From the NCBI GenBank assembly GCA_001543395.1, contig LPNG01000001.1, forward strand, positions 87,760 through 151,759: a DNA stretch of 64,000 bases. Reading direction: 5' to 3'. Shown here one piece after another: positions 6,383 through 20,252 of this stretch; position 1 is the stretch's first letter; every line of letters begins with the position of its first letter. The notes beneath the pieces were generated by a model. It was not told the origin of the DNA. It ran no database searches and saw only the letters and a list, made by a program, of their open reading frames with translations. Origin of the DNA: Candidatus Alcium sp. F082. GTDB taxonomy: Bacteria; Bacteroidota; Bacteroidia; Bacteroidales; F082. The translations under genes and the position numbers were made by a program.

Positions 6383-6517
6383 TTAAAAAAACAAAGACAT
6401 GACCAAGCTAATAACAGCGATTACACCAAACACGATAGCAGCAATAACAAAGCACCCAGGCCCATCACTGCCACCCCCATCGAAATCACCTGTTTTTGGA
6501 TTATATTCCCAACCCAT
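6383..6517 (-). CDS. Small membrane peptide, 44 aa (MGWEYNPKTGDFDGGGSDGPGCFVIAAIVFGVIAVISLVMSLFF)
   Basis: Not in the track (<60 aa). The ATG is 12 nt after the E1 stop. The N-terminus carries the YNPKTGDF motif shared with two upstream small proteins, followed by a Gly-rich linker and one C-terminal hydrophobic helix. Confidence 0.4.
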   Translation of the reverse strand: MGWEYNPKTGDFDGGGSDGPGCFVIAAIVFGVIAVISLVMSLFF

Positions 6518-6529
6518 AAGTGTAAGTAT

Positions 6530-7741
6530 TTAAAATGATTGTAATAGTTCCTCAAATTCATCTCCTGTATCCAGCAGAATCTCATCCTTTGAACAAACAG
6601 CGCAATCATCTCGTCTACTGATATTGGCCCCGTACCAACGCATGATTGTAGGCATTGGGCCTGCTCCTGGCAAGATGTGCCAATTGGAGAATTTGCGTTC
6701 TCGTCTGTTTGCCCATAGATAGTAATTGTAAACAAGTTCATCTTCCAAACACGAAATGCCAGAAGCCTCACCTCTCGACAGCTCCACTAAGGCCAACTTA
6801 ATCATCATGTTACAGATAGGCTCAATATCAGCCGAAAGACCCACTTGAACCATCGCGTCAGCATCCTGGGCTGAAACGTATGCGGGAATTATGCCGGTCT
6901 GGCGAGCCGAGACCTCGTCAGTAATCTCTTCATGGACAACTCCAATATTTCCCACCAAACAGCTGTAGCAGGCCTGACCTGGATGATAGATAAATACATC
7001 ACCACCTTCGGCTCGAGTAAAAGCCCTTCCAAAGATACCAACTTTCTGGAAATCGACCAAAGCCTGCGACAAGGCAAAGCGGCTCGGGTTGTTGTCGGTG
7101 GCACAAATCACTAAATCAGCACAACACACAATTTCTTCAAGTCTTTGGTTGTTTTTGCTGATATCCAAGGGGTATTTGTGGATTTTTGTGTAAGGGTTTT
7201 TACCGAGAATAGATTCTTCGATGGCATCTGTTTTCAGCCTTCCCAAATCTTTGATGAAACAAGTGTGGCGGGCAAGATTATGAAGTTCTACCCGATCAAA
7301 ATCCACCAAAGAAAACTCTCCCACTCCAGCTTTTGCCAACTCAATGGCAATCTGTGACCCGAAACTGCCTAAACCAATAACGGCTACATGCTTTTTTTCC
7401 AAGATTCCGACTTCCAAAATACCTTTACTTCTGGAATACAAATTCTCCTTCGATGGTATCATTTGGGAATCCACCCGTTGAAGCTCATTATCAGTCTTAA
7501 CGAACACCTGTGGGCCGTCACCTCCGACAAAAACACACCAAAGAACATCATTCAAAAATGATACAATTGGGGCGGCCTTTGAGAAAAAGCACTTTGAAAC
7601 CCTACCGAAGGCATGTGCCAAAGGCTGAGTATGGAGATGCACCACGTCCTCTCCTTCCCATTCGTAAGCATAGCCACATTGAGATTCTGCTTCACCACTG
7701 GCAAAAGCATCCAACTCCTCTTGTGAAAGATAGACAATCAT
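6530..7741 (-). CDS. ThiF/MoeB/HesA-family E1-like adenylyltransferase with ~115-aa N-terminal extension
   Basis: VAVIGLGSFGSQIAIELAKAGVGEFSLVDFDRVELHNLARH (Rossmann/ATP motif plus the NLxRH/Q signature). Two CxxC pairs (CYSC, CAVC), as in Zn-binding E1-like enzymes. Confidence 0.85.
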   Translation of the reverse strand: MIVYLSQEELDAFASGEAESQCGYAYEWEGEDVVHLHTQPLAHAFGRVSKCFFSKAAPIVSFLNDVLWCVFVGGDGPQVFVKTDNELQRVDSQMIPSKENLYSRSKGILEVGILEKKHVAVIGLGSFGSQIAIELAKAGVGEFSLVDFDRVELHNLARHTCFIKDLGRLKTDAIEESILGKNPYTKIHKYPLDISKNNQRLEEIVCCADLVICATDNNPSRFALSQALVDFQKVGIFGRAFTRAEGGDVFIYHPGQACYSCLVGNIGVVHEEITDEVSARQTGIIPAYVSAQDADAMVQVGLSADIEPICNMMIKLALVELSRGEASGISCLEDELVYNYYLWANRRERKFSNWHILPGAGPMPTIMRWYGANISRRDDCAVCSKDEILLDTGDEFEELLQSF

Positions 7742-7914
7742 GCGAATCCATCCTTGGTCATGTCGGTTACAACCTCACCAGCGCTATGGGTGATACCCAT
7801 TGGGGCTTCCTCAAACTCACCCGTGTTGGGATTGAATACTAAATCCGTGATGGTGTTTCCGTTCTGCGTGTCTTTTACGACTTTGGCGATTTTGTTTGCT
7901 TTCTCTTCGTTCAT
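7738..7914 (-). CDS. Small protein, 58 aa (MNEEKANKIAKVVKDTQNGNTITDLVFNPNTGEFEEAPMGITHSAGEVVTDMTKDGFA), translationally coupled to E1
   Basis: Not in the track (<60 aa); translated by hand. Its TGA (7738-7740) overlaps the E1 ATG (7739-7741) as ATGA. Carries the FNPNTGEF motif. Confidence 0.45.
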   Translation of the reverse strand: MNEEKANKIAKVVKDTQNGNTITDLVFNPNTGEFEEAPMGITHSAGEVVTDMTKDGFA

Positions 7915-7926
7915 ATAAATTCGTAT

Positions 7927-8268
7927 TTAAGGTTCGTCAAATCTTTTATCGAATAACTCTTCTATCTGTTCACTTGTTAGCTGTATTCCGTCGGCTTCAC
8001 ATTCTTGAATGGTTTCTTCCATCATTTTACGATACCTATCCACAACGTGTCTTGCAGTATCAGCTATCAAATCTGATAATTCCTTCGGAGGTGCTATATA
8101 TGAAGCAAGTAGAAAACTCGGCACCTCACCTTCTTCATAATTGTTGGGATCTTCATACTCATCTGTTTCACAATTATAAATCAATTCGAGCTCACTTTTG
8201 GACTTGCAATTCTCGAAATCACCGGTCCTTTCATTATAGGCCAAATCGAACCAATCATTGTCTTCCAT
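7927..8268 (-). CDS. Acidic hypothetical protein, 113 aa
   Basis: Track ORF, strongly D/E-rich. The N-terminal DLAYNERTGDFEN matches the motif of the 58-aa and 44-aa ORFs. Sits between E2 and the 58-aa ORF with 12-17-nt gaps. Confidence 0.55.
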   Translation of the reverse strand: MEDNDWFDLAYNERTGDFENCKSKSELELIYNCETDEYEDPNNYEEGEVPSFLLASYIAPPKELSDLIADTARHVVDRYRKMMEETIQECEADGIQLTSEQIEELFDKRFDEP

Positions 8269-8285
8269 AGTATCACGCTTTTAGA

Positions 8286-8714
8286 TTAGCTTTGATGTTT
8301 CAAATAATAACCGATAGGCGCGCCGGTGCTCAAATGTGCCTCATACATTTCAAGCCACAGACGGCACTTGATATAAACTTTATATAGGGAAACCCTATTG
8401 GTCCATGAGGAAGTCCCATAATGGCAAATCTGGGTACACCCGTTTTCGCTATTTAATGTATGCATAGAAGAACTCGGGGTGTCGAGTGGGTTGAGATTAC
8501 AATCATATAACATTTTGGTTACAAACACCTTGGGAATATTATCGGGAAACACATCCAATTCAATTTTCAAGGTATAAATATTCCCTCTATTGGTACGGGC
8601 TGCCATTACCAAATAAGGCTTTGCCGTATTCATATCCATGAAACGATAAATGTTTGAAGGTAGTTTCTCCTCCAACACTTTAATTTCAGCTTGATATCTG
8701 CTGTATTTCATCAT
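8286..8714 (-). CDS. UBC-like (E2-like) protein, 142 aa
   Basis: The start ATGATGA overlaps the JAB stop. YTLKIELDVFPDNIPKVFV resembles the E2 hP..hP flap, followed by HTLNSENGCTQICHYG, which resembles the E2 HPN...G.IC active-site region (Cys93/Cys97). Fold assignment is by pattern only. Confidence 0.6.
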   Translation of the reverse strand: MMKYSRYQAEIKVLEEKLPSNIYRFMDMNTAKPYLVMAARTNRGNIYTLKIELDVFPDNIPKVFVTKMLYDCNLNPLDTPSSSMHTLNSENGCTQICHYGTSSWTNRVSLYKVYIKCRLWLEMYEAHLSTGAPIGYYLKHQS

Positions 8715-9616
8715 AATCTATGTAGTTTATAGTATTCAATAAATGATTGTTCGGTTTCTCCTTCAATAGGTTGCCAGCCCAATCCAGATGCACATAAGCC
8801 TTCTGTTTCATAGGTAATCAGAGGAGAACGTTCGGGGAATCCCATTGGGAACAGAATATCAGTTGTTATCGCTTCTTCTTCGTTTTTTACAAGGATATGA
8901 ACAAGGCGGTTTTCATCAAGCGAAACATTGCAATCCATATCATCATGCTGTTCTTGAACAAAATCAAGCATCGTTTTTAGCACCTTGTTATTGCTCTTGT
9001 CGTTCATCCAATAACCTTTGGGGTATTGTTGTTTCACTCCTTGAACGACCATGGATTTGTATTTCATCCCGACCAGCACAGGGGTTTTGGTGTAAGGATG
9101 CCTCAATATCCGTTTCAAACGCCTGTCTATCACTTTTCTGAAAGGGCTTTCCATAGGCAACACTTCCCATTGTGATTCTTGGTAACAAGAAGTGCTTTCA
9201 ACGAAATTAAAGGCATTGATGGTTGATGTCGTGTTGGTGCAGTTACCAATACAAAGCAAGAACCAACGCAAATTATGGCGAAGCATGTTGTCATATATAG
9301 TATGGGCATCGTGGCCACTGGGATAAGCCAAACCCAGCTGATGATGGGAATGCCATTCGCCGATATGTTGCAGTCCAAATTCATGAACGAGGATTTCGCC
9401 CACTGTTTCAAGATAGTCAAGGTCTTGGTTGAAGAAAGTGGGCTGATGGTTGGCGTTGTCGCCAGGGCCAATGGCGTACAACACCACGGGAACACCTGCC
9501 GAAGTCCAATAGCCAAACAGTTGTCCGCCCGTCTCGATATGCGGATAGTCAAGGATGCAGCGCGAAAGATAATCCAATTCGCTTTGATAGACCAGAACAG
9601 TGTCGGCGGGTTTCAT
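8711..9616 (-). CDS. JAB/MPN (JAMM) metallopeptidase with ~150-aa C-terminal extension
   Basis: HIETGGQLFGYW (Glu) and EWHSHHQLGLAYPSGHD (H-x-H-x(7-8)-S-x-x-D JAMM motif). The track start at 9646 is TTG; the ATG at 9616 (MKPADTVLVY...) is preferred. Confidence 0.8.
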   Translation of the reverse strand: MKPADTVLVYQSELDYLSRCILDYPHIETGGQLFGYWTSAGVPVVLYAIGPGDNANHQPTFFNQDLDYLETVGEILVHEFGLQHIGEWHSHHQLGLAYPSGHDAHTIYDNMLRHNLRWFLLCIGNCTNTTSTINAFNFVESTSCYQESQWEVLPMESPFRKVIDRRLKRILRHPYTKTPVLVGMKYKSMVVQGVKQQYPKGYWMNDKSNNKVLKTMLDFVQEQHDDMDCNVSLDENRLVHILVKNEEEAITTDILFPMGFPERSPLITYETEGLCASGLGWQPIEGETEQSFIEYYKLHRL

Positions 9617-9629
9617 GGCATGTATGATT

Positions 9630-9953
9630 TTATCTTTGGTGAGCAATAATGATTTGTCTCATTTCGATGGCTTCCGATTTCAGGAAGCCGTGGATGGAAA
9701 CAAGGTTCCCGAACGCGAAGAACGATATGGTGGAAAAGCCCACAATGGGCGTTTCGATATGCACCAACGAGATACAGTTGTAAGGTATGTAAGTCGATTT
9801 TCCGCTGAAAATGAAAGGGCAACGCACCGTCACGCCGTTGTCATCGAAAATGATGGTCGGCGGGAACAAGGCGTTGCCTTGGGAAATTCGGGATGCGGTG
9901 TAAGTACGGAGCATGATATTCTGGTACTTTTCTTCGAGGTCACCATCTTGCAT
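9630..9953 (-). CDS. Hypothetical 107-aa beta-rich protein (possibly bacterial PH-like)
   Basis: Track ORF. The ATG at 9953 is 1 nt after the Zn-ribbon stop. Alternating hydrophobic strands (TIIFDDNGVTVRCPFIF...ISLVHIETPIVGFSTISFFAFGNLVSIHGF) end in a helix. No GG terminus. Confidence 0.5.
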   Translation of the reverse strand: MQDGDLEEKYQNIMLRTYTASRISQGNALFPPTIIFDDNGVTVRCPFIFSGKSTYIPYNCISLVHIETPIVGFSTISFFAFGNLVSIHGFLKSEAIEMRQIIIAHQR

Positions 9954-9954
9954 T

Positions 9955-10179
9955 CTAAATTAAAATCCATTCATGCGACCCTCCTTTTGAACAATCGGTG
10001 AATTTGGGGCGACCACTACTATGAACTATAATCCCGCATTTATCACAACAATAGGTATCATCGCCCACTTCTGAATTATATTGCCAATCATGTTCCCCTC
10101 CGTTAGGGCATGAAGATTTAGGCGGCATTCCATTAGTTTTTGTAATCGAACTACATTTTGGACAATCAAAGTTTTGCAT
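9955..10179 (-). CDS. Tandem zinc-ribbon protein, 74 aa
   Basis: Two copies of C-x2-C-x(13-14)-C-x-x-G-G-x-H-x-W: CPKC...CPNGGEHDW and CDKC...CSKGGSHEW, giving eight potential Zn ligands. Confidence 0.6.
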   Translation of the reverse strand: MQNFDCPKCSSITKTNGMPPKSSCPNGGEHDWQYNSEVGDDTYCCDKCGIIVHSSGRPKFTDCSKGGSHEWILI

Positions 10180-10224
10180 GGTTCTTTAACCCTAAATTCG
10201 TCATCGGGTGCAACTTCTTATTTC

Positions 10225-10254
10225 TGCCTACTCGTGAGCTTTTCGGCTTCCGCT
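10225..10254 (-). promoter_or_regulatory. Conserved leader motif, copy 1: minus-sense AGCGGAAGCCGAAAAG-N5-GAGTAGGCA
   Basis: Lies in the only long spacer of the operon (10180..10345), 45 nt upstream of the Zn-ribbon ATG. Both half-motifs recur at 15845..15877. Confidence 0.4.
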
Positions 10255-10345
10255 TAAAATTATCCAATCATTACCCCTAAAGATGCTTGGTTTATCCTTT
10301 CCAAAAACAGTACACTTTTTGGGGGTAGTATAATCTTATTTTGAA

Positions 10346-11680
10346 TTATTCTCCTCGTTCAATGGTATCGACTATAACACCAACACACGTTGCCATTGAA
10401 GGATTACAAATACCATCATCACCATTTAAAACGATGTGTTCGTCGGGATAACCTATTCGAACATCCATGCCTGTTTTGAACTCAACAAGTTGCTTTAGGT
10501 GTTTCATCATGGCTCCACCACCAGTTAGGACAATCCCGGCATACAATTGTTCTTCCAACCCCGTTTTAGTTATTTCACTATAAATAAGGTCAATAATTTC
10601 TTCTTCTCGACTTTGGATAATATGGGACAAGTTTTTGAATGATATTTCTCGAGGTCCCAATTTGCCAACGCCCGGTATGGAAACAACTTCATCTTCACTG
10701 TTTTCACTGGCTAAAGCAGAGCCAAAATTTACTTTCACTTCTTCGGCATAACGTTTGATTATTTTGCAGGAGGCACAAATATCCTTTGTAATAATACATC
10801 CGCCAAGAGGAACAGCAGCAACATGTTTGACTTTTTTGTCTTTATAGACAACTATGTCTGTTGTATTTCCACCAATATTAACGAGAACGACACCAACTTC
10901 CATTTCATTTTTATCAAGTACTGAATTGGCTGATGCTATGGGGTCTGGAATAATGAAATCTATCTTCACACCAGCACTCTGGAGGGGTTTCATGATGTTT
11001 TTGGCAGCAGAGGTTTGCCCAATGATGACATGGAAGTTGGCTTCGATTTTGTTACCTAACATGCCAACGGGGTTAGTGGCGAGCTCGCCATCGACATAGG
11101 TGTCTTGACGGATGACGTAAATGATTTCCTCACCAGGTGTCATGTTGATTTTAAAAGTATCGTTGCGCAAACGCTCCAGTTCCGCTTCCGAAATCTCAGT
11201 GTCATGGTGGTCACGCATCAACACGCCTCGATGTCGTATAGACTTAATCCGTTTATTAGAAAAACCGACACTTACATGGGTTATTTCTACTCCAGCTTCT
11301 TGCGAAGCTTGTTTTATAGCTGATTTGACCGCTTCGACAGAATAGCCGACTTCTTGTTCTTCTTCATTTAATGCAATTTGACTGCTCCCTATAACGACAA
11401 TCTTACCATTAGCATTTTTATATCCGATTACACATACAACTTTTGTGGCACCAATATCCAACCCGACAACGACACTTTTATTATCTTGCTTTTTTGCTTC
11501 TTCACCCAAGTTTTCTTCTTCATTTGAAGAATCTCCAAACTTTTCATTATTAGCAGATTCAACATCTATTTTTTTATCGCTATATTGTGTTGGCATTTCA
11601 TCAACACTTCCTGAATTATTTGAAGAATCTCCAAATAATTCGTTATAAGCAGCATCAAAGTCTATATTGATCGTACCCAT
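10346..11680 (-). CDS. FtsA-like actin-fold ATPase paralog with acidic repeat-containing N-terminal extension
   Basis: VVVGLDIGATKVVCVIG (phosphate-1), VLVNIGGNTTDIVVY (phosphate-2) and GIVLTGGGAMMKHL (adenosine motif), collinear with FtsA including the SHS2-type insert. The first ~70 aa carry a duplicated NE[LK]FGDSSN. It ends right after the core, without a C-terminal amphipathic helix. Confidence 0.8.
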   Translation of the reverse strand: MGTINIDFDAAYNELFGDSSNNSGSVDEMPTQYSDKKIDVESANNEKFGDSSNEEENLGEEAKKQDNKSVVVGLDIGATKVVCVIGYKNANGKIVVIGSSQIALNEEEQEVGYSVEAVKSAIKQASQEAGVEITHVSVGFSNKRIKSIRHRGVLMRDHHDTEISEAELERLRNDTFKINMTPGEEIIYVIRQDTYVDGELATNPVGMLGNKIEANFHVIIGQTSAAKNIMKPLQSAGVKIDFIIPDPIASANSVLDKNEMEVGVVLVNIGGNTTDIVVYKDKKVKHVAAVPLGGCIITKDICASCKIIKRYAEEVKVNFGSALASENSEDEVVSIPGVGKLGPREISFKNLSHIIQSREEEIIDLIYSEITKTGLEEQLYAGIVLTGGGAMMKHLKQLVEFKTGMDVRIGYPDEHIVLNGDDGICNPSMATCVGVIVDTIERGE

Positions 11681-11691
11681 ATTACATCTTT

Positions 11692-12012
11692 TTAAAAATC
11701 CAAACCACCACTAAATGTCGCCCCTGAAGCCGTGGTGATGTTTACGTCTGTAGCACCAAGATTTCTTTTGATATATGGGATATCCGTGTCTTCTATATGC
11801 TTTATAAGACTATGGATATAGTCTTTGTCACGAGAATAATTATCGCTTGAATACTTTTGATAAACCTCGTTCGACAATCCATCAATGTGCAATTCCTCTA
11901 CTCGCTTTTTATATCTTTCCATTGTGTCAATTAATTCTTCTTGGAATCCTTCCAAAAAATGTTGCAATTTCTGTAATGCTTCTAATTGTTTTTTTAATGA
12001 TTGCGTTGACAT
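11692..12012 (-). CDS. 106-aa helical-hairpin protein (WXG100-like architecture) with flexible ...SGGLDF C-terminal tail
   Basis: Two predicted long helices are joined by a HIDGLS turn (in place of W-x-G). The tail is GATDVNITTASGATFSGGLDF. It sits between the coiled-coil and FtsA-like genes with 11-12-nt gaps. Confidence 0.5.
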   Translation of the reverse strand: MSTQSLKKQLEALQKLQHFLEGFQEELIDTMERYKKRVEELHIDGLSNEVYQKYSSDNYSRDKDYIHSLIKHIEDTDIPYIKRNLGATDVNITTASGATFSGGLDF

Positions 12013-12024
12013 GTTGTTATGATT

Positions 12025-13089
12025 TTAGTGGGTGAATAAATGTTTTAGTTTGGCAAAAAAACTTCCATGTTTCATTTCATAGATAGTCTTGTCTCTATCT
12101 TTGAGTTGATCTTTTAACCGCGCTATCTCATCTTTCAATTCTTTAACGGCTTGCGACACTTTGGCTTTGAATGTTTCAAATTCTTTACTATAAGTATCGT
12201 TATTGTCAGCTAATTCTTGAATGTGGCGTCCTTGCAACTGCTCCATCTGCGTATGATAATGTTCTTCTTTGTCTGACAACTCCTTGTGGTGTTGCTCTTG
12301 CAACTGCGCAATTTGTTTGCTATGGTTTTCATTAACCAGCGCTATTCTATTTTCGTGTTCTTTCTTAAGCGACTGAAAATCAACAAGTGGAACCTCATCG
12401 GCATATTTCTTGGTCATCTCACTTATCTTGTCGTTCAATTCCTTGATTTTCCCGTTATACTCATTTACAATCTTTTTCCTCTCCGATTCAGCAGTCTTCA
12501 TTAAAGCTTCATGTTTGTCCGCTGCGCTTTCCACCTCTGCTTTATGCTCTGCTCTCTCTCTTGCAATCTGATCACGCAACCCACTAACTTCCTGCATGTG
12601 TTGTTCAACAAGTGTCTTTTCCCTGTCTTCAGCGGCACTCCTAAAGGCATCCATTGCTTCTTTGGCATTTTCAGCAACCTCTTTCATCTCTGATTTCAGG
12701 TCGGATTTTTCCTTTTTTGCCTTGTCTTGCAGCATTTTTATTTTTTCCTCATACTGTTTTTCGCTGCTTTCTTTCTCCATCTTTAGCGCTTCTATTTCTG
12801 TTTCAAATCGCGCAACGAGTTGTTTTTCCTTACTATTTGCAGAAACTATATAGGTTTCCATTTCTTCTTTGGCTTTGGCGCCAGCAGAAGCCATTTCCGC
12901 TTTTAAGTCCATCTTATCCTTTTGGGCTTGCTTGCGAAGCTTCTCAATCTCCAACTTATGTTTGTCTTTCAACTCTGCCAATTGATTCTCATAAGAATCT
13001 CTAATGGCATTTTCTTTTTCAAGAATTTCATTCTTGGTTTCATCATCAACATGATGGAGATAATTAAGATAAAAATTATAGTCTGCCAT
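12025..13089 (-). CDS. Lys/Glu-rich coiled-coil protein, 354 aa, with internal duplication
   Basis: Heptad-rich K/E/Q sequence throughout. LRKQAQKDKMDLKAEMASAGAKAKEEME... is repeated as LQDKAKKEKSDLKSEMKEVAENAKEAMD.... The start is 5 nt after the ATPase stop. Confidence 0.75.
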   Translation of the reverse strand: MADYNFYLNYLHHVDDETKNEILEKENAIRDSYENQLAELKDKHKLEIEKLRKQAQKDKMDLKAEMASAGAKAKEEMETYIVSANSKEKQLVARFETEIEALKMEKESSEKQYEEKIKMLQDKAKKEKSDLKSEMKEVAENAKEAMDAFRSAAEDREKTLVEQHMQEVSGLRDQIARERAEHKAEVESAADKHEALMKTAESERKKIVNEYNGKIKELNDKISEMTKKYADEVPLVDFQSLKKEHENRIALVNENHSKQIAQLQEQHHKELSDKEEHYHTQMEQLQGRHIQELADNNDTYSKEFETFKAKVSQAVKELKDEIARLKDQLKDRDKTIYEMKHGSFFAKLKHLFTH

Positions 13090-13094
13090 AGCCT

Positions 13095-15602
13095 TTATAA
13101 TTTGTATATTTTAATTTTTTCGATTTCCTCTTCCATTTCAGCAGAACGCAGATTGGCTGTGTAACTATTCCTTACTGTCGATTTGTCGGCACCGCCAAAA
13201 ACCTTGTATCCTTCACCACCTTTCAACTCTATGCCGATTCTCCACTCAAAAATGAAGTCTCTACTATCAAATATCCGTTCATAATGTTGCCAAGTATCCA
13301 CGTATGCAATGACATGAATGCCATATTCTGGACCATCGCTCACAATTTCAGTCAGTTTAGAACAAACAGATGTAGTCCTATCACCACGAAGGATTCTCAC
13401 TGGACGGAAATTGTATAGGTTATGAAAAGCCAACACCAATCTTGCATATTTTCCTTTTTGAGTCTTTCTTTTGTTTAACTCTACACATATCTGTTCAATA
13501 CGTTTTTCTATTTCCTCATCATCTGTTTCGACTCTCAAATTAGAATACTTTTTCTGCAATTCTCTATACTTTCCATATAAACCGCTTTCTTCGTTTGTTT
13601 TGTCGCAAACAATAAACCGGCCTTCTTCTGAGGTCTGTTTGACTATTTGCTCCAATGAATGGAAAATGACAGAAGTGGCTGCTTCTTGATCTTGGCCTAT
13701 CATAAGCACATTGTAGCCATTCTCTCTTTGTAGTGAATAATATATATGAGAATCACTCAGGGAGAAAGGCGTTCCAATATATACTTTAATCTTACCATCT
13801 GTTGGTATAAGATTCTGTATAGCAAGATTTGTGCTTATTTCAACAGGTGTTTCCCCATCAAATATATAGCGACTAAAGTCCTCGTTAATATTACTTTCGT
13901 ATTTTAATCGCAATTTTGAGACCATCTCCTTTATCCTTGTCTCATTCAAATAAGCAACTTGATAAATTACATTGTCCTTATAATTACCACCTGGGCAATA
14001 CACAGACTCGCCTTTTTTTGTGAGTGAACGCGGTGCATAATTATTGGGACCAAGAATCTTCGTACATTCATTTTCGGAATTGAGTCTCATTGAAATCCTC
14101 AAACCAAACTCATCCAATGAATGACCGATACTGAGGTCTCCCAAACCCTGCGTGGATAGAATCATGTTGATTCCAAAAGACCGTCCTCTTTTCCCAATAT
14201 CAGATATTCTGCCAGCGAAATACTCCGCTGCGCGATAGCTGCTATCAAACAGTTTTTGGAACTCGTCAATAATAATAACGTATCGAGGTAGTTTTTCTAA
14301 AGCATTCTTATTGTATTCCAACAAATTGGTTGCTCCAAGAGGTTTGTATAATTCTCCTCTACGAGTAATTTCATCATCAAGGTATTTGAAGACATTTTTT
14401 GCAAATTCCAACTCACTTTTTATCGAAAGCACCTTTACATGCGGCAAATCCTTGTAAACATTAAACTCCGTACCTTCCTTGAAATCAAGCAACAAAAACT
14501 GGACTTCTTGAGGAGAATAAAGCCATGCGGTATTACAAATGATGTTATGCAACAATACGGTTTTTCCCGAACCCGTGGAGCCGCCAATCAAACAATGATG
14601 ATATGATTGCCCTCGGCCATCTTCTACACTTAGAACAAAATTTTGAATATCAGTCGCGTTCACCTTTCCAATAGGAACTTCTATTCCATAACTTGCATCA
14701 GAAGTCCACATGTTCTTTCCTGTAAATTTATCGGCAAGGCTGACAGCAACATTTTGCGCCCTTTGGAGATTCTTGTTGATATAATCTTGTATTTCCTCCG
14801 TTTGAGTAGCATCGGGGAATGCAGTATCTAAGTGCAATGCAAACCGTCGAAGCATTTCATCATTAAGGAGGTTCTTGACATAGAATCTTTGGCCTTTTTC
14901 GTAAATCACCGTCATACTATCGAGCAAAGGCATTGGGTTGTACTCGTATTCTTTCCCAACAGTAAAGGAGGTATCAAAACTGATAATTGTAAAAAATCCT
15001 GCCTTTCTACCTGTCTTCACTATTTGCTTTAGCAACTCCCCGGTTTCCTTATCAATTGAATAAGGCACGTCTGTAAGAACGATAATATGATATGGCTTTG
15101 CCAGTTCTCCTGCATTTCCATTATAATCCACAAGCGTCTTATCGGCATATCTAGCACCTAAGATCTTTTGAATAACCATCGGGATGTTATTCTTCACTTT
15201 CAACAACTCTGATTTCAAATCATAAGTATCGGTCAAAATTCGTTCACCAATAATCTTGGAATTCAAATAAGAAAGGTTGATCAGATTGCCTCCTTGTCCC
15301 TTTGCATCGAACAATGTGAATTTGCACAAACCCGGAGGAATTGACAAAGCCAACCGAAGAGCCATCATTTGGATGGTGTTCTTTACGGTTTTTTCATTTT
15401 CTGGCGTAGTCAAAAAGCAAACACCGTTGGTCTGGTCAAGAGGAATCAATGCGGGAATTCTGTTACCTGTCACAGATTCATATTCGCCAATATAAATGCC
15501 TTCCTTGGGAAAAACATCAAAATCCTGCTCAACCAATTCAAAGTCCCTAGAATTGGCCGAGGTCTTGTGAGTTGTTTTATAGTAATCTTCGACGGTAATC
15601 AT
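13095..15602 (-). CDS. Soluble multi-domain FtsK/SpoIIIE-family (EssC/EccC-like) P-loop ATPase, 835 aa
   Basis: The central domain has Walker A CLIGGSTGSGKT and Walker B RYVIIIDEFQ, plus LSTQ. The flanking N- and C-terminal regions look like degenerate copies (FLTTPENEKT...KFTLFDAKG...YHIIVLTDVP; VLMIGQDQEAAT...ARLVLAFHNL). No TM or FHA region. Confidence 0.85.
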   Translation of the reverse strand: MITVEDYYKTTHKTSANSRDFELVEQDFDVFPKEGIYIGEYESVTGNRIPALIPLDQTNGVCFLTTPENEKTVKNTIQMMALRLALSIPPGLCKFTLFDAKGQGGNLINLSYLNSKIIGERILTDTYDLKSELLKVKNNIPMVIQKILGARYADKTLVDYNGNAGELAKPYHIIVLTDVPYSIDKETGELLKQIVKTGRKAGFFTIISFDTSFTVGKEYEYNPMPLLDSMTVIYEKGQRFYVKNLLNDEMLRRFALHLDTAFPDATQTEEIQDYINKNLQRAQNVAVSLADKFTGKNMWTSDASYGIEVPIGKVNATDIQNFVLSVEDGRGQSYHHCLIGGSTGSGKTVLLHNIICNTAWLYSPQEVQFLLLDFKEGTEFNVYKDLPHVKVLSIKSELEFAKNVFKYLDDEITRRGELYKPLGATNLLEYNKNALEKLPRYVIIIDEFQKLFDSSYRAAEYFAGRISDIGKRGRSFGINMILSTQGLGDLSIGHSLDEFGLRISMRLNSENECTKILGPNNYAPRSLTKKGESVYCPGGNYKDNVIYQVAYLNETRIKEMVSKLRLKYESNINEDFSRYIFDGETPVEISTNLAIQNLIPTDGKIKVYIGTPFSLSDSHIYYSLQRENGYNVLMIGQDQEAATSVIFHSLEQIVKQTSEEGRFIVCDKTNEESGLYGKYRELQKKYSNLRVETDDEEIEKRIEQICVELNKRKTQKGKYARLVLAFHNLYNFRPVRILRGDRTTSVCSKLTEIVSDGPEYGIHVIAYVDTWQHYERIFDSRDFIFEWRIGIELKGGEGYKVFGGADKSTVRNSYTANLRSAEMEEEIEKIKIYKL

Positions 15603-15605
15603 TGC

Positions 15606-15821
15606 TTATGGCAAGGTTTTGAGAAACTCTTGGTACATTTCCATGGCACTGCTAAAATTCTGTCTTTCATCCTTCAACAAATCCCTACCGTCAAAAATAT
15701 AACCGACATAAGTTGGATATTGGTCTGCGGAATTTTGGGTCAGTTTTTTATTTTGTACTTTTTCTTTATCTAACCAATCTTTAAACTCATCTCTTTTGTA
15801 ATAATTTGCTTTTCGGCTCAT
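15606..15821 (-). CDS. Hypothetical 71-aa protein, first gene of the operon
   Basis: Track ORF. Its stop is 3 nt before the ATPase ATG. Charged, probably helical; no recognisable motif. Confidence 0.5.
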   Translation of the reverse strand: MSRKANYYKRDEFKDWLDKEKVQNKKLTQNSADQYPTYVGYIFDGRDLLKDERQNFSSAMEMYQEFLKTLP

Positions 15822-15844: not shown

Positions 15845-15877
15845 TGCCTACTCTCTCCCAACTTTTCGGCTTCCGCT
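15845..15877 (-). promoter_or_regulatory. Conserved leader motif, copy 2: minus-sense AGCGGAAGCCGAAAAG-N8-GAGTAGGCA
   Basis: 23 nt upstream of the ATG of the first operon gene (15821). Same 16-mer and 9-mer as at 10225..10254. Confidence 0.4.
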
Positions 15878-16076
15878 GTCTTGGAGTAGAGGCAACAAAA
15901 AAAAAGCCCGCACCCCAATCCTATCATGAAGTGAAGGCTCTCGCATGCCCGAAGTAAAGATAAGGAAAGCAGTGCGTGCTTTATGGGCACACAACGCTCA
16001 CACTTCTGCCTTACTTCGTTCAAATTTGCGAGATTCTCACTTTCAGACAGGTGGTATCGCTACCGATTATATGCCG

Positions 16077-16084
16077 CAAATATA
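16077..16084 (-). promoter_or_regulatory. Candidate Bacteroidota -7 box TATATTTG (TAnnTTTG) for the FtsK/E1-E2-JAB operon
   Basis: Minus-sense ...ATTGTTGCAAAAGCGAAAAATATT-TATATTTG, with a TTG-containing -33-like element about 20 nt upstream. It would give a ~250-nt leader. Confidence 0.35.
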
Positions 16085-16183
16085 AATATTTTTCGCTTTT
16101 GCAACAATTTTTGCACATTTTTCCGGCAAACCACCAGCACTGCTATCCGAGGGCAAAAGTAGAGGTTTTAATAAAACCAGATG

Positions 16184-16249: not shown

Positions 16250-18112
16250 CTACAAAGTGGAAAGATTCAGAAACTGTGGTTCGCCTCCGTTTTTAATGAT
16301 GGCAACTCCTTCCGAAACAATGATGGACTCGCTCTTGGGTACGACAACCCTGCCATTGATGTCGATAATGGTATAAAACCCGTCTTTGGTCTTTGCAAGA
16401 ATCATGGCAAAGCCCTCCAAATATGTCGTCCGAGCATAAGTACCCGGCTCAATGCTCATCTTCCCCCCTCCATTAACCACACCAAAATCATTTTCATATC
16501 GACCAAGCAAAAAGGCACCATCTTCAGCTTTTTTTCCATAAGGATAGTTCAGATTGGTGACATGCTCCATACGAACATTGACAACACCATACCCTTCGTC
16601 AGTCTCAGCAAGGGCAAGGTCATTACTATTGAAATCTAAGCGGTGCTTGAATATCGGTTTCTCCAACTCCTTGCCATCCATTCCTATATAACCATACCGT
16701 CCAAGCTTTTTCACAGGTATTATTCCCTTTTTGCTGAATGCTAATTCCACATCATTATACTCAGCTTCAGCAGGTAGAGGATTTAGGTAAATCACATAAT
16801 CTAGAGTCCGTCCACGTCTTCTTCCGATATAAAAATGATAGTCCTCTGCCAGTGTAAGTATTTCTCTGTAATTAAACAAATATTGCCGCCCATTTGGCGC
16901 GACCAATCCATACTTCCCATCCAGGCAACAAACAGCATACCCGTCTTTAAACGCTTTGGCATCTTGATAGATGGCTGGGATAACCTCCTTCCCATTTCTG
17001 TCAACATACCCATATAGGCCATTCGTTTCATCCAAAAAAAACAATGGCGATGCAGTTTTGCTTTCCAACTCAGCACGTTGATACTGTTCAAGATAACTTT
17101 GTGCAAGGGAATCTTGGTCTAAGTCTGTCGGGACATCGGAATCTACGGGAATTTGTACATGGACAATATCCAACTTTGGCTTGATCGGAATTTCCACCTT
17201 AATAGTATCATGCCTCTCTTCAACAATAAAAACCGTGTCGGTCACTATTTCAGATTGTGTCTGGATTTCATCGTCAGTAACAAGTTGTTTGTCTGCTTTT
17301 TCGTTTATGGTTTTGTTGGTGAGAAACCACACCAATAACGGCACAACGAACACCAAGAGCGACACCCATCGTGAAAGAAAATCCCTAAAACGAAGGGCTT
17401 TTCGCACCTCATTGATGTTTTTATGCCGTTTTGAGGCTTTTTTCCGCTGGCATTTGCGCACAACCCCTCCATAGCGGTGTGGAAACAACGCCTTGATGAC
17501 AAAACCCAAGGAAAAGATGTCGCTCGTGACATCCGTCTGCTCGCGGTTCGCCAACTCGGGCGCGGCATAGGCTTCCGTGCCTCCTGTGGCCTTGTCGCAG
17601 TTGGAATCGCTGTCGGCATAGCCGAAATCTATCAGCTTGACATTGTGTCCGTTGCGAGTTATAAGGATATTCGCAGGCTTCAAGTCGTTGTGAACCACCT
17701 GATGGCTATGAACGAAGGCCATGGCATCCAGCAACTCGCCAAGAATGCGTTTCTTTTCTTTATGGGAAGGCGATGTCTTCAAAAAATCCGACAAGGTCGC
17801 ACCATCGATATATTCCATGACGATGCACGGCCCCACTTCGGCATCCTCGCGCCAGCCAATGCAACGCACAACATGTTCGTTGCCATACAAACGCTCCAGC
17901 AGCCTATACTCGCGCTGCAACCTCGCGAGGTTCTCTGCCAATACACCCTGGTCCCGATTCAAGGCTTTGAGGAACAGCTTACGCTCTCCGCTGAGCACGG
18001 AGTACAAAACACTGTAGCCCGCACCATGATAAGGCAAGCGTCTATAGTCGTGAAACTGGGAATAGCTGGCAACCATCTCCCCAAACGATCCCGAAGTGAA
18101 ACAATCTTCCAT
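16250..18112 (-). CDS. Ser/Thr protein kinase with one TM segment and C-terminal WG-containing (KWG-type) repeats
   Basis: Kinase subdomains HNDLKPANILI, DFGYA and AYAAPE; TM segment WVSLLVFVVPLLVWFL; then repeated units of the type GLYGYVDRNGKEVIPAIYQDAKAFKDGYA / GKYGLVAPNGRQ / GRYGYIGMDGKELEKPIF. Confidence 0.85.
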   Translation of the reverse strand: MEDCFTSGSFGEMVASYSQFHDYRRLPYHGAGYSVLYSVLSGERKLFLKALNRDQGVLAENLARLQREYRLLERLYGNEHVVRCIGWREDAEVGPCIVMEYIDGATLSDFLKTSPSHKEKKRILGELLDAMAFVHSHQVVHNDLKPANILITRNGHNVKLIDFGYADSDSNCDKATGGTEAYAAPELANREQTDVTSDIFSLGFVIKALFPHRYGGVVRKCQRKKASKRHKNINEVRKALRFRDFLSRWVSLLVFVVPLLVWFLTNKTINEKADKQLVTDDEIQTQSEIVTDTVFIVEERHDTIKVEIPIKPKLDIVHVQIPVDSDVPTDLDQDSLAQSYLEQYQRAELESKTASPLFFLDETNGLYGYVDRNGKEVIPAIYQDAKAFKDGYAVCCLDGKYGLVAPNGRQYLFNYREILTLAEDYHFYIGRRRGRTLDYVIYLNPLPAEAEYNDVELAFSKKGIIPVKKLGRYGYIGMDGKELEKPIFKHRLDFNSNDLALAETDEGYGVVNVRMEHVTNLNYPYGKKAEDGAFLLGRYENDFGVVNGGGKMSIEPGTYARTTYLEGFAMILAKTKDGFYTIIDINGRVVVPKSESIIVSEGVAIIKNGGEPQFLNLSTL

Positions 18113-18902: not shown

Positions 18903-20252
18903 CTACAAGAACGGAACCATATACAATGGCACCATCAGCGTCTCACCGTCTTTACGCAAATCCTTGGTATATACCAGATAGCGATGCAAAATTTCCGACG
19001 AGAACTTCTTGCAAAATCCATCAAGCGAAACATGGGCCTTGTAACCCGAAGACTTCACTTCTATCGGACAGAGTTTGTTGCCACGCGACAAAAGGAAGTC
19101 AATTTCATAGTTGTGTTTGCCTGATGGTGTCGGCCAAGTATGGTAAAACAACTCATTGCCTCCGGCTTTCAGCATTTGCGCCACCACGTTCTCATAAACA
19201 TACCCTAGATCGGCACTCAGCTTGTCGGAAAGCAGCTTTTGATAAATGATGTTTTCGGTCACATCCTTGTCCCAAAATGCCAACGTGATGAACAAACCCG
19301 TATCGCCGACAAACATCTTATAACGGTCTTTGTCCTTATGCAAGGCCAATCCTACCGAAGGATTGTTAGCATTGTAGGCGAAGTTCACACAAAGGCTATC
19401 CTCCATATCCTCCAACAACTCATCCATGTCAGTGTTTTCCGCACTACGCCCCAACACACTCATCACCTGATAACGAGAGGCATTCTTCGCAAGTTCCGAA
19501 GGGATGGCTTTAAACAGACGTGCGGATTTCCCCGAAGGATCAATCTTGCGGAAATCCTCGGTATAAAGGTCTATGATTTCGCGCTTGGATTGGTCAACCT
19601 CGCTTAGGTTGTTTGTGACAAGATAGGTGTTAACCGCCTGAGGCATTCCCCCAACCAACATATACAGCCTAAAGTCGCGCAACAATTGTCTGGCAACTTG
19701 GTCGCCAACAGAACGCTTGTTCTCGTAGGCTTCCCTCAACAACGGAATAGTCACCTCATCTCCCAAGGCCCAACGAAATTCCTCATAATCCATAGGGTAC
19801 ATCGTGATGCGCGTTTCCTCACTTGGAATAGTGATACCCTTCGTATTCTTCTTAATCGACAAGAGCGACCCCGTCTCGATGTAGTCATACCGATGATCTT
19901 TCACCATATACTTTATGGCTTGCCTCACTAGCGGGGCGTTTTGTATCTCATCGAAGATGACAACCGACTTGCGTTCCACCAGCTTTACCTTATAAATGAA
20001 TTGCAACTGGAAGAAAAAGTTGTCAAGGTCAGCGATGTTCTTTACGGCTTCCCACACTCCCTCTGGCGCATTGGCAAAGTCAACCACAATATATGAAGTG
20101 TATTCTCGTTTGGCAAACTCCTCGGCGATGGTCGATTTCCCAACTCGACGTGCCCCTTTGATAAGCAGTGCCGATTTACCGTCCTTGGTACGTTTCCAAT
20201 TCAGCATCTTATCGTACAGCTTCCTCTTGAAAATGCGAAATCCAGCATCCAT
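18903..20252 (-). CDS. AAA-family ATPase of the AAA_14 + DUF4143 type
   Basis: Walker A LIKGARRVGKST and Walker B VVIFDEIQ. The C-terminal portion is of the type seen in DUF4143 proteins. Paralogous in architecture to 57949..59121. Confidence 0.8.
   Translation of the reverse strand: MDAGFRIFKRKLYDKMLNWKRTKDGKSALLIKGARRVGKSTIAEEFAKREYTSYIVVDFANAPEGVWEAVKNIADLDNFFFQLQFIYKVKLVERKSVVIFDEIQNAPLVRQAIKYMVKDHRYDYIETGSLLSIKKNTKGITIPSEETRITMYPMDYEEFRWALGDEVTIPLLREAYENKRSVGDQVARQLLRDFRLYMLVGGMPQAVNTYLVTNNLSEVDQSKREIIDLYTEDFRKIDPSGKSARLFKAIPSELAKNASRYQVMSVLGRSAENTDMDELLEDMEDSLCVNFAYNANNPSVGLALHKDKDRYKMFVGDTGLFITLAFWDKDVTENIIYQKLLSDKLSADLGYVYENVVAQMLKAGGNELFYHTWPTPSGKHNYEIDFLLSRGNKLCPIEVKSSGYKAHVSLDGFCKKFSSEILHRYLVYTKDLRKDGETLMVPLYMVPFL

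Follow-up and report, generated by a model that had tools for sequence, protein, structure and literature searches.

Bacterial systems that combine an E1, an E2 and a JAB peptidase are seen both as roots of ubiquitination and as antiviral devices, and the modifiers characterised so far are either a beta-grasp ubiquitin-like protein (Ubl), in Bil and Bub, or the cGAS-like enzyme itself, in type II CBASS. The protein conjugated in type II CBASS has no beta-grasp fold and is attached via its conserved C-terminal Gly/Ala, and Cap3 cleaves a head-to-tail fusion of it (Jenson 2023, PMC10097602); BubAB is a fusion of a Ubl with an E2 (PMC11601603). Concerning secretion, a footnote of Zhang et al. 2012 (Biol Direct, PMC3482391, Table 1 footnote 6) lists a mobile class similar to type VII secretion systems (T7SS), made of a solo WXG protein and a YueA-like ATPase; according to this footnote the ATPase possesses three HerA/FtsK domains, only the middle one being active, and the class is found in Bacteroidetes, Planctomycetes and others (PMC3482391). 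Here we analyse a block of genes in which relatives of both kinds of system lie side by side, in a stretch of 64,000 nt from Candidatus Alcium sp. F082 (contig LPNG01000001.1), hereafter the window. All coordinates are positions in the window, and L-numbers (L085, L088 and so on) designate the related loci with which it was compared. The window sequence is identical to contig LPNI01000001.1 of GCA_001543405.1 and to metagenome contigs.

Thirteen open reading frames (ORFs) on the minus strand run from 15821 down to 6383, separated by -4 to +17 nt with the exception of a 166-nt spacer at 10180-10345, and all are where a first-pass annotation of the sequence had placed them. The same-direction run of genes continues past 6383 with two further Sel1 genes, down to 3750. 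The G+C content is 0.35-0.46 over about 4-21 kb and 0.50-0.55 in the flanks, in agreement with the AT-richness already remarked on in that annotation. The only transmembrane (TM) helix of the block belongs to a 44-aa peptide. The first-pass annotation took the thirteen genes for one operon coupling an ATPase module to a ubiquitin-like transfer module. We find it somewhat more probable than its contrary that the block is instead a composite of two self-contained cassettes, A (15821-10346) and B (10179-6383), within a variable hotspot that has a kinase on one side and Sel1 genes on the other, and that each cassette works by the mechanism proposed for it below. The features on which the comparison is based are the following.

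16250..18112, minus strand: Ser/Thr kinase with one TM helix and WG repeats (Pfam Pkinase, 1e-32)
15845-15879, minus strand: DUF805b cis-regulatory RNA motif, leader of cassette A (Rfam RF02914, 35.9 bits against a gathering score of 35.6)
13095..15602, minus strand: soluble EccC/EssC-like ATPase of 835 aa with three FtsK-like domains (FtsK_SpoIIIE and EccC/EssC hidden Markov models, HMMs)
12025..13089, minus strand: coiled-coil partner of the ATPase, 354 aa, with an N-terminal YxxYLxxLxHVD motif and an amphipathic C-terminus
11692..12012, minus strand: helical hairpin of the WXG100 superfamily, 106 aa, ending in GGLDF (family profile)
10346..11680, minus strand: FtsA paralog, tagged client and candidate effector (TIGR01174, 284.5 bits against a cutoff of 175.85)
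10225-10256, minus strand: second DUF805b motif, leader of cassette B, within the 166-nt spacer (RF02914, 34.3 bits, E=3e-8)
9630..9953, minus strand: beta-rich protein of 94-107 aa, junction gene (homologues found by either cassette)
8711..9616, minus strand: JAB/JAMM peptidase with an intact E...HSH...S..D site (Pfam Prok-JAB; 15 PADLOC JAB models, best 1.7e-12)
8286..8714, minus strand: UBC-like E2, 142 aa (PADLOC E2 HMM, 1.3e-5)
7927..8268, minus strand: acidic 113-aa protein (g10), a clade-specific partner with two N-terminal tags of the YNxxTGxFE type
7738..7914, minus strand: p58, 58 aa, with a helix, a beta-hairpin (LVFNPNTGEFEE) and the tail ...TDMTKDGFA-COOH (71/85 loci by tblastn)
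6530..7741, minus strand: ThiF-type E1 (Pfam ThiF, 4e-32; PADLOC E1-E2, 2e-30)
6383..6517, minus strand: 44-aa membrane peptide (g13) with an N-terminal YNPKTGDFD tag and a TM helix
3750..6307, minus strand: two Sel1-repeat proteins, right frame of the hotspot (Pfam Sel1)

Related loci were collected by scanning one genome per species with the ATPase profile, which gave 80 loci from Bacteroidota, Planctomycetota, Chloroflexota, Proteobacteria and others, and by scanning metagenomes with the E1 profile, which gave 80 further loci and, together with five fetched earlier, makes 85 E1 loci. In L085, which has the same flanks as the window and an ATPase 81% identical, the gene order is kinase, small ORF, ATPase, coiled coil, WXG-like protein, Sel1, a 96-aa beta protein and Sel1 again, and no FtsA, JAB, E2 or E1 was found in this locus. 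Conversely, L088 and L093-L098, whose E1 is 83-95% identical, carry the E1 cassette without the ATPase; there the order is kinase, small ORF, either nothing or a radical-SAM cassette, and then the 94-aa beta protein, JAB, E2, acidic protein, p58, E1, TM peptide and Sel1. From these gene orders it is evident that the kinase/Sel1 frame is constant and that the cassettes come and go. A homologous kinase is found upstream in L085, L088, L093-95, L100 and L186, regardless of the cassettes that follow; it is the left frame of the hotspot and a member of neither cassette. Sel1 homologues come after the cassettes in L085, L088 and L093-L100.

The wider samples gave the same picture. None of the 80 species-representative ATPase loci has an E1, E2, JAB or FtsA-like gene within 10 kb of the ATPase, and an FtsK-family ATPase is absent from 82/85 other E1 loci. 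Each cassette of the window has its own leader: the DUF805b motif of cassette A lies 24 nt upstream of the first ORF, the second one opens cassette B, and the two copies have an exact 15-mer in common. This leader is also found ahead of the first gene of other cassettes, in L088 (4576, 4870), L093-95 and L098 (three copies). Each cassette also has its own peptide tag, and no cross-tagging was found. Because the cassettes occur alone (L085 on one side, L088 and L093-L098 on the other), a second DUF805b leader is present and the tags are cassette-specific, the coupling of all thirteen genes in a single operon is not supported; the division into two modules, with the FtsA paralog in the ATPase module, was right.

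Downstream of DUF805b we also observed a conserved stretch, AAGTTGCGCCCG...TTTAGGG...ATG, and the pair precedes the first gene of every hotspot cassette; it may serve as a common leader or regulator, or else as a junction facilitating the exchange of cassettes. The Rfam leader and the conserved intergenic sequence were used in place of a sigma-70 promoter and terminator scan, whose consensus is ill-suited to Bacteroidota and which returned counts no higher than shuffled sequences did.

The alternative that survives best, although we regard it as rather unlikely, is one integrated system in which the FtsK/WXG machine and the E1-E2-JAB cascade act together; a specific version, to which we give the same low standing, is that p58 conjugation would mark or license clients for remodelling or relocation by the ATPase, the FtsA paralog being the common output. 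The common strand and the tight packing agree with it, but it should be noted that tight same-strand packing within a hotspot is no evidence of one system. A better argument comes from recurrence, since an FtsK-family ATPase lies directly upstream of the E1 module also in L100, L133 and L134. The ATPase subtypes of the window, L100 and L133/L134 are mutually 25-29% identical, and the adjacency is present in 3/27 informative E1 lineages besides the window (an informative lineage being a 90%-identity cluster with at least 5 kb of upstream sequence), a frequency that seems above the expectation for unrelated genes. These observations weigh against our reading of the block as a composite. The PH-like junction gene common to both contexts and the presence of another remodelling ATPase, ClpB-like, in 51/85 E1 loci also go in the direction of an integrated system. 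On the other side stand the occurrence of either cassette alone in close relatives, the absence of the E1 module from all 80 ATPase loci, the separate leader of each cassette, the cassette-specific tags, with the FtsA paralog bearing only the ATPase-type one, and the fact that L133 and L134 have ClpB as well as the FtsK-family ATPase. The linkage between modules proposed at first is therefore to be kept only in part: adjacency does recur, with three divergent ATPase subtypes, but the partner module is missing from 80 of 80 ATPase loci and 82 of 85 E1 loci. The modules are separable and not obligately coupled, and facultative cooperation or a common insertion hotspot may account for their vicinity. 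A replacement of ClpB by the FtsK-family ATPase was also considered and ruled out, as L133 and L134 carry both.

Our literature searches found no account of an FtsK-E1 combination, in line with the first-pass statement that no described system joins both modules. PADLOC, run on 10 of the 13 ORFs, and NCBIfam likewise gave no system-level match.

Cassette A is an instance of the mobile T7SS-like class, noted before in the footnote cited above yet never dissected. Matches to the FtsK_SpoIIIE and EccC/EssC models run through the centre of the ATPase; its AlphaFold2 (AF2) model has a pLDDT (the confidence score of the prediction) of 85.5, and the full length aligns to the three-ATPase cytoplasmic domain of T. 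curvata EccC, 4nh0 (Foldseek E=2e-32, >920 columns). A Walker A motif (GGSTGSGKT, aa 340-347) is found only in the middle FtsK-like domain. As in the class of Zhang et al., the middle P-loop is thus the sole active one, a solo WXG100-like partner is adjacent, and the family is spread over Bacteroidota, Planctomycetota, Proteobacteria and others. What is new here is a coiled-coil partner, a G[LFW]DF tail, a DFDAAxxxxF client tag and a client derived from FtsA.

The coiled-coil partner seems to be a regular companion of the ATPase: in the majority of the family loci that were listed in detail, the gene immediately after the ATPase starts with YxxYLxxLxHVD and encodes 158-602 aa. At its end (window 12025-12070) we observed an amphipathic sequence, GSFFAKLKHLFTH, with the counterpart RSFFEKLKDLFKK in L085 (12520-13302); similar to a membrane-targeting helix, this end could tether the otherwise soluble cassette to the membrane. 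For the 106-aa protein, a profile built from 15 relatives matches EsxB 4j42 (8e-6), HP0062 (1e-5) and EsxA, in a range from 8e-6 to 2e-2. Its hairpin turn is D-G-L in place of WxG, distant members having W-x-D, and the C-termini in close relatives are GGLDF, MGFDF and QGWDF, that is, G[LFW]DF in the ATPase subtype of the window.

The protein encoded after the WXG-like gene varies from locus to locus, but it starts with a DFDAAxxxxF tag, always 7 residues past the start Met. The tagged clients are MATFDFDFDAAFSDIFG (the Sel1 protein of L085), MAKKDFDFDAALNDIFE (L086), MAKKEFDFDAALSDIFA (L185), MSTFDFDSAFADIFG (a Sel1-like protein of L186) and MGTINIDFDAAYNELFG (the FtsA paralog of the window), so the tag occupies the same position in five independent loci. 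Scanning 1.45 Mb in six frames for it gave one unrelated match. Since this tag is common to the clients at this position, the FtsA paralog is to be considered the client of cassette A in the window. We propose that the ATPase would bind the WXG tail and the client tag and, upon a trigger, would release or remodel the client. In other ATPase subtypes the next protein has a different N-terminus, GYxDGYxxGxxGKxKDF (L006 15439-16059, L015 4315-4896, L133 4509-5489, L134 6317-7288), and in L134 the C-terminal part of this protein matches the WXG-like protein (27% identity, tblastn); such a sequence may be a second client or adaptor code of the ATPase family.

In comparison with canonical T7SS, the three-domain EccC/EssC ATPase and the helical-hairpin partner are alike, and by analogy the C-terminal tail of the hairpin could dock on the ATPase as it does there. 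The differences are the D-G-L at the WxG position, an ATPase without TM or FHA region and a two-membraned host; in addition, neither EssA/EssB/EsaA nor EccB/EccD/EccE/MycP had a Pfam, NCBIfam or PADLOC match in the cassette. A minimal type VII-like exporter of the WXG-like protein and of tagged clients (Sel1, FtsA-like) would nevertheless explain the EccC-like three-domain ATPase together with a WXG100-superfamily protein, and it would fit the name 'mobile versions of T7SS' that Zhang et al. 2012 gave to the class. We consider it very unlikely. No TM segment (no hydrophobic window >1.6) and no FHA domain were found in the 835-aa ATPase, and no membrane protein encoded in cassette A was revealed by a TM scan, which makes a classical exporter unlikely. 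Bacteroidota moreover have two membranes, and the client in the window is a cytoplasmic actin-fold ATPase copying the 1C domain of the host FtsA.

This FtsA paralog belongs to the FtsA family and is 65% identical to housekeeping Bacteroidales FtsA over its aa 70-444. Among 5.8 billion non-redundant proteins its closest relatives are those of its own strain cluster only, followed by housekeeping FtsA at 65%. One such housekeeping gene sits in murC-ftsQ-ftsA-ftsZ; the window paralog, unlike the FtsA of cell division, is outside the dcw cluster (ftsQ-ftsA-ftsZ), in an accessory locus, and is devoid of the C-terminal amphipathic helix. None of the other ATPase or E1 loci has an FtsA-like gene in its vicinity. 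Missing from the paralog are the last ~70 residues, containing the linker and the membrane-targeting helix, its end corresponding to residue 384 of the 455-aa housekeeping protein. Two of its regions deserve a separate entry.

11474..11680, minus strand: N-terminal extension of 69 aa, with the tag IDFDAAYNELFGD at aa 6-18
10973..11242, minus strand: host-like patch in the SHS2/1C subdomain, aa 147-236 (identity and G+C at third codon positions, GC3)

The extension holds also a degenerate second copy of the tag, at aa 38-50. The 1C patch shows 87-96% amino acid identity to housekeeping FtsA (about 92% for the patch as a whole), as against 30-60% in the remainder; its GC3 is 0.556 (0.16-0.31 in the remainder), and identity at synonymous third positions reaches 53%, compared to 24-40% elsewhere. 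This pattern suggests that the patch was copied from the host ftsA into an AT-rich paralog by gene conversion, and that it is important for the paralog to mimic the 1C surface of the host. A tagged, anchor-less FtsA is likely to be the effector of the cassette. Kaur et al. 2020 (eLife) reported MinD/ParA, FtsK and FtsZ-like effector domains in conflict systems, FtsA being unlisted. The window is similar in that a homologue of a cell-division protein occupies the variable effector slot of a conflict-type system; it differs in that the FtsA paralog looks catalytically complete, is C-terminally truncated and has a 1C patch matching the host. As the paralog could engage partners of the divisome and yet not reach the membrane, its action would be dominant-negative: the anchor-less FtsA would poison the host divisome and division would stop.

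Cassette B is apparently an undescribed family, Bacteroidales-wide, within the bacterial ubiquitination-like operons, and no account of this E1 family turned up in the literature searches. Its core is well conserved among the 85 E1 loci: the E1 is present in 85, the E2 in 83, the JAB in 79 and p58 in 71 (tblastn). The E1 consists of a new N-terminal beta-rich domain of ~100 aa and a single adenylation domain, with a CxxC...CxxC zinc site and an invariant Cys310. Its AF2 model matches ThiF, UBA5, Cap2, BubCD and MccB in Foldseek, and the protein is roughly equidistant from MoeB, ThiF, MccB, UBA5, Cap2 and BubCD. In the E2, His85 and Cys97-His98 are invariant, and the hhalign alignment with UbcH5B is in register, Cys97 falling on the catalytic Cys85 and FPxxxPKV on YPFKPPKV. 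The JAB start was corrected from homologues to the ATG at 9616 (301 aa), instead of the TTG at 9646. Its active-site residues do not vary within the family, and the protein has a family-specific C-terminal domain of ~150 aa, for which an HMM search against PDB yielded nothing useful. With these results, and with those obtained for cassette A and FtsA, the fold guesses made at first sight (FtsK/EccC, WXG100 superfamily, FtsA, JAB, E2 and E1) hold by HMM, AF2/Foldseek and hhalign. In L002 (16076-16077, about window 9470-9530), a metagenome contig 99.99% identical to the window, we observed an in-frame 60-bp deletion in the JAB gene that removes GGQLFGYWTSAGVPVVLYAI; it hits the catalytic core, and the contig is a natural variant in which the JAB is probably inactivated.

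No ORF of the block matched a beta-grasp Ubl family. The first annotation concluded from the letters that a recognisable Ubl and a classical effector were both lacking; this is probably wrong, as p58, with its conserved GFA end, is likely the modifier and the tagged FtsA likely the effector. The consensus of p58 is ...LV[FY][ND]PxTG[DE]F...G[DE]xVT[DE]MTxxGFA. Searching with a regular expression for this motif gave 54 copies, 27 of them free, 23 on the N-terminus of an E1 and 4 on the N-terminus of an E2; 20/27 free copies finish exactly at GFA, the other 7 having one or two extra residues. We also found tandem p58-p58 proteins and a p58 joined to a tagged membrane protein. A modifier without the beta-grasp fold is the likely role of p58, because a fixed C-terminal carboxylate is what an E1 needs and because the fusions mirror the known Ubl-E2 fusions. 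In a phmmer search against 1.8 billion representatives the real family comprises at most 39 representatives. The top matches (P0361, P0362, P0365, P0388), long and with many matched stretches, were treated as spurious; P0365 and P0388 are long tandem-repeat proteins, by eye of Ig-/cadherin-type, with an NPxTGxI turn in common. Such matches are almost certainly convergent, the tag resembling a common beta-hairpin turn.

The hairpin of p58 is found outside p58 as well. A motif [YF][ND]xx[TS]G[DEN][FW][DE] heads diverse downstream proteins at residues 3-12, among them an Hsp70-TPR protein, short TM peptides, a membrane protein with a zinc finger and proteins between 118 and 343 aa long. Six-frame translations of E1 loci contain the strict pattern 100 times, and the same quantity of ATPase-locus sequence has no match; g10, p58 and g13 are its only carriers within the 64-kb window. 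The acidic g10 is found in 8/85 E1 loci, and tagged TM proteins such as g13 come after the E1 in many other loci. In the mechanism that we propose, the E1 would adenylate the C-terminal carboxylate of p58 (...GFA), p58 would move to Cys97 of the E2 and would then be conjugated to targets. The JAB would free p58 from its natural fusions to E1 or E2, would trim precursors that extend beyond the C-terminus, and would also reverse conjugation. A docking code bringing partners to the enzymes would be provided by the YNxxTGxFE hairpin, which lies inside p58 and at the N-terminus of its partners; the window has two such partners, the acidic g10 and the membrane peptide g13. Gene content, folds, motifs, fusions and the separate occurrence of the cassettes are what we observed, whereas this chemistry, the tag-receptor pairs, the block of division and any anti-phage role are what we infer.

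Several points speak against the mechanisms just outlined and, for FtsA, against the one proposed for cassette A. In the AF2 model of a natural p58-E1 fusion, p58 appears as a helix and a beta-hairpin, at low confidence; the pLDDT of the peptide is 33-52 and its tail is undocked at the adenylation site. The invariant Gly of p58 is followed by a conserved aromatic residue, which is atypical of E1-activated C-termini. The E2 call is based on a weak HMM match (23 bits), on the motif register and on the gene context, and a search of PDB with the E2 family HMM was empty. The reference for the FtsA patch was the FtsA of other Bacteroidales and not the copy of the same genome, which makes the gene-conversion reading indirect.

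In comparison with type II CBASS, the E1/E2/JAB set is alike, and the best PADLOC matches are indeed CBASS JAB, E2 and E1-E2 models; a Cap3-like JAB peptidase is present in the window; in neither system is there a beta-grasp Ubl, and the likely substrate ends in Ala or Gly, as reported for cGAS (PMC10097602). The window differs in that E1 and E2 are separate genes and in that the candidate modifier is a dedicated 58-aa peptide; furthermore, no CD-NTase or cyclic-nucleotide effector was matched by PADLOC or Pfam in the ORFs scanned. As in Bil, E2, JAB and E1 are stand-alone proteins; as in BubAB, the modifier is on the N-terminus of the E2 in some p58 loci; and, as for both Bil and Bub, the surroundings look like defence islands. 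However, the window module lacks a beta-grasp Ubl, its E1 has one adenylation domain without the IAD or CYS domains of Bil, and hhalign of the E2 family with E. aridi BilB gave no meaningful alignment. With respect to Bub, the window genes are separate, BubCD is merely a remote match (8e-5) and DUF6527 (BubE) had no match in Pfam scans of the 13 ORFs. The 6A-MBL systems (an E2-E1-JAB triple-domain protein plus a metallo-beta-lactamase, MBL) are also different: the NCBIfam 6A-MBL scores are 26 and 64 bits against a cutoff of 320, and there is no MBL gene in the window block. Pupylation relies on glutamine-synthetase-like ligases and not on an E1-E2 cascade. The analogy with Pup is that p58 is short, has no ubiquitin fold and would act via its C-terminus, the difference being the E1-E2 enzymes.

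Besides the ClpB-like AAA+ protein, which comes after the E1 in the 51 loci mentioned above but not in the clade of the window, neighbours in the E1 loci include Hsp70-TPR, UvrD-like helicase, TerB, CHAT and caspase proteases, ArdA and HsdR, a set that resembles the surroundings of a defence island. A broader statement, that this is a genuine Bacteroidales E1-E2-JAB cascade with p58 as a modifier without ubiquitin fold and YNxxTGxFE as a portable label on chaperones (Hsp70-TPR), zinc-finger proteins and membrane proteins, cooperating in some lineages with a membrane-less type VII-like ATPase whose tagged payload in the window would be a dominant-negative, host-mimicking FtsA that blocks division, is made here only tentatively and is to be taken as possible instead of probable. 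We give little credence to the idea that cassette B serves for sulfur transfer or for a maturation like that of ribosomally synthesised and post-translationally modified peptides (RiPPs), the E1 adenylating p58 for MccB/PaaA- or ThiS-type chemistry: solved structures closest to the E1 include MoeB, ThiF, MccB and PaaA, the candidate substrate is a short peptide and radical-SAM/SPASM cassettes with Cys-rich small ORFs adjoin the module in L088, L098 and L140, but nearly all members of the family have both a JAB and a UBC-like E2 with its invariant His...Cys pair, p58 occurs in tandem units and in fusions with E1 or E2, the same motif is found on large proteins such as Hsp70-TPR, and the radical-SAM cassette has its own leader and is missing from most loci.

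The start of the beta-rich junction protein, annotated as a 107-aa ORF, is probably at 9914, giving 94 aa, as judged from homologues. These homologues adjoin the ATPase cassette in L085, which has no E1 cassette, and the E1 cassette in L088, which has no ATPase cassette. In a Pfam search of the small ORFs at relaxed threshold, the sole match was that of a distant relative to bPH_3 (E=1e-3), and the protein is probably a bacterial PH-like domain; an HMM search of the 94-aa form against PDB yielded nothing useful. This ORF was considered as the missing Ubl and ruled out, being present by the ATPase in L085, where there is no E1, E2 or JAB. Two further genes of the block complete the list.

15606..15821, minus strand: ORF of 71 aa, role unassigned and without family matches
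9955..10179, minus strand: tandem CxxC...C...H zinc-ribbon protein, accessory (by sequence; homologue in 3/85 E1 loci)

The 71-aa ORF, assigned at first to the ATPase module, does exist, but it is not conserved: a homologue is absent from every related locus, no Pfam, PADLOC or NCBIfam family matches it, and unrelated small ORFs fill its slot in L085, L088 and L186.

The hotspot shows further variation. Its kinase domain is kept, with 72-97% identity between the window and L085 (8159-9358), L088 (2977-4218) and L100 (1704-2945), and the C-terminal part of the kinase differs, the protein having 620 aa with WG repeats in the window and 399-413 aa elsewhere. Downstream of the kinase gene, at about 15895-15990, lies a terminator-like element ending in GGGGTGCGGGCTTTTTTTTT, and a TAtaTTTG box, like the Bacteroidota -7 box, is found farther upstream (about 16075-16085). 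Since the terminator-like element is conserved in L088, L093 and L098, the arrangement suggests that the kinase is transcribed apart from the cassettes. Upstream of the kinase, the window has an AAA_14/DUF4143 ATPase gene (18903-20252) that is absent from this place in the syntenic L085, a further presence/absence variation within the hotspot. In L088 (5145-7823) and L098 the slot of cassette A is taken by a radical-SAM/SPASM (PqqD-containing) enzyme, an amidohydrolase and small ORFs, one of them a 42-aa Cys-rich peptide (MKEFKKVEMIAKNLPTGSYAAGCPAEKCDYSAQQCKYCERTM); this looks like a RiPP-type cassette. Scans of viral contigs gave no relatives of the E1, and ATPases only at 24-35% identity; matches so distant are no sign of a phage origin.

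Experiments are merited on p58 as the candidate modifier, on both peptide address codes and on the FtsA paralog, which lacks its anchor and mimics the host protein. If the proposal for cassette B is true, p58 would be a third kind of modifier, in a large Bacteroidales family of gut and rumen metagenomes, and the linear docking motif would be a simple, testable code for the recruitment of targets. For cassette A, the client tag and the WXG tail are the first handles on the function of mobile T7SS-like ATPases in Gram-negative cells, and an anchor-less FtsA with a host-like 1C patch suggests that the target is the cell's own divisome.

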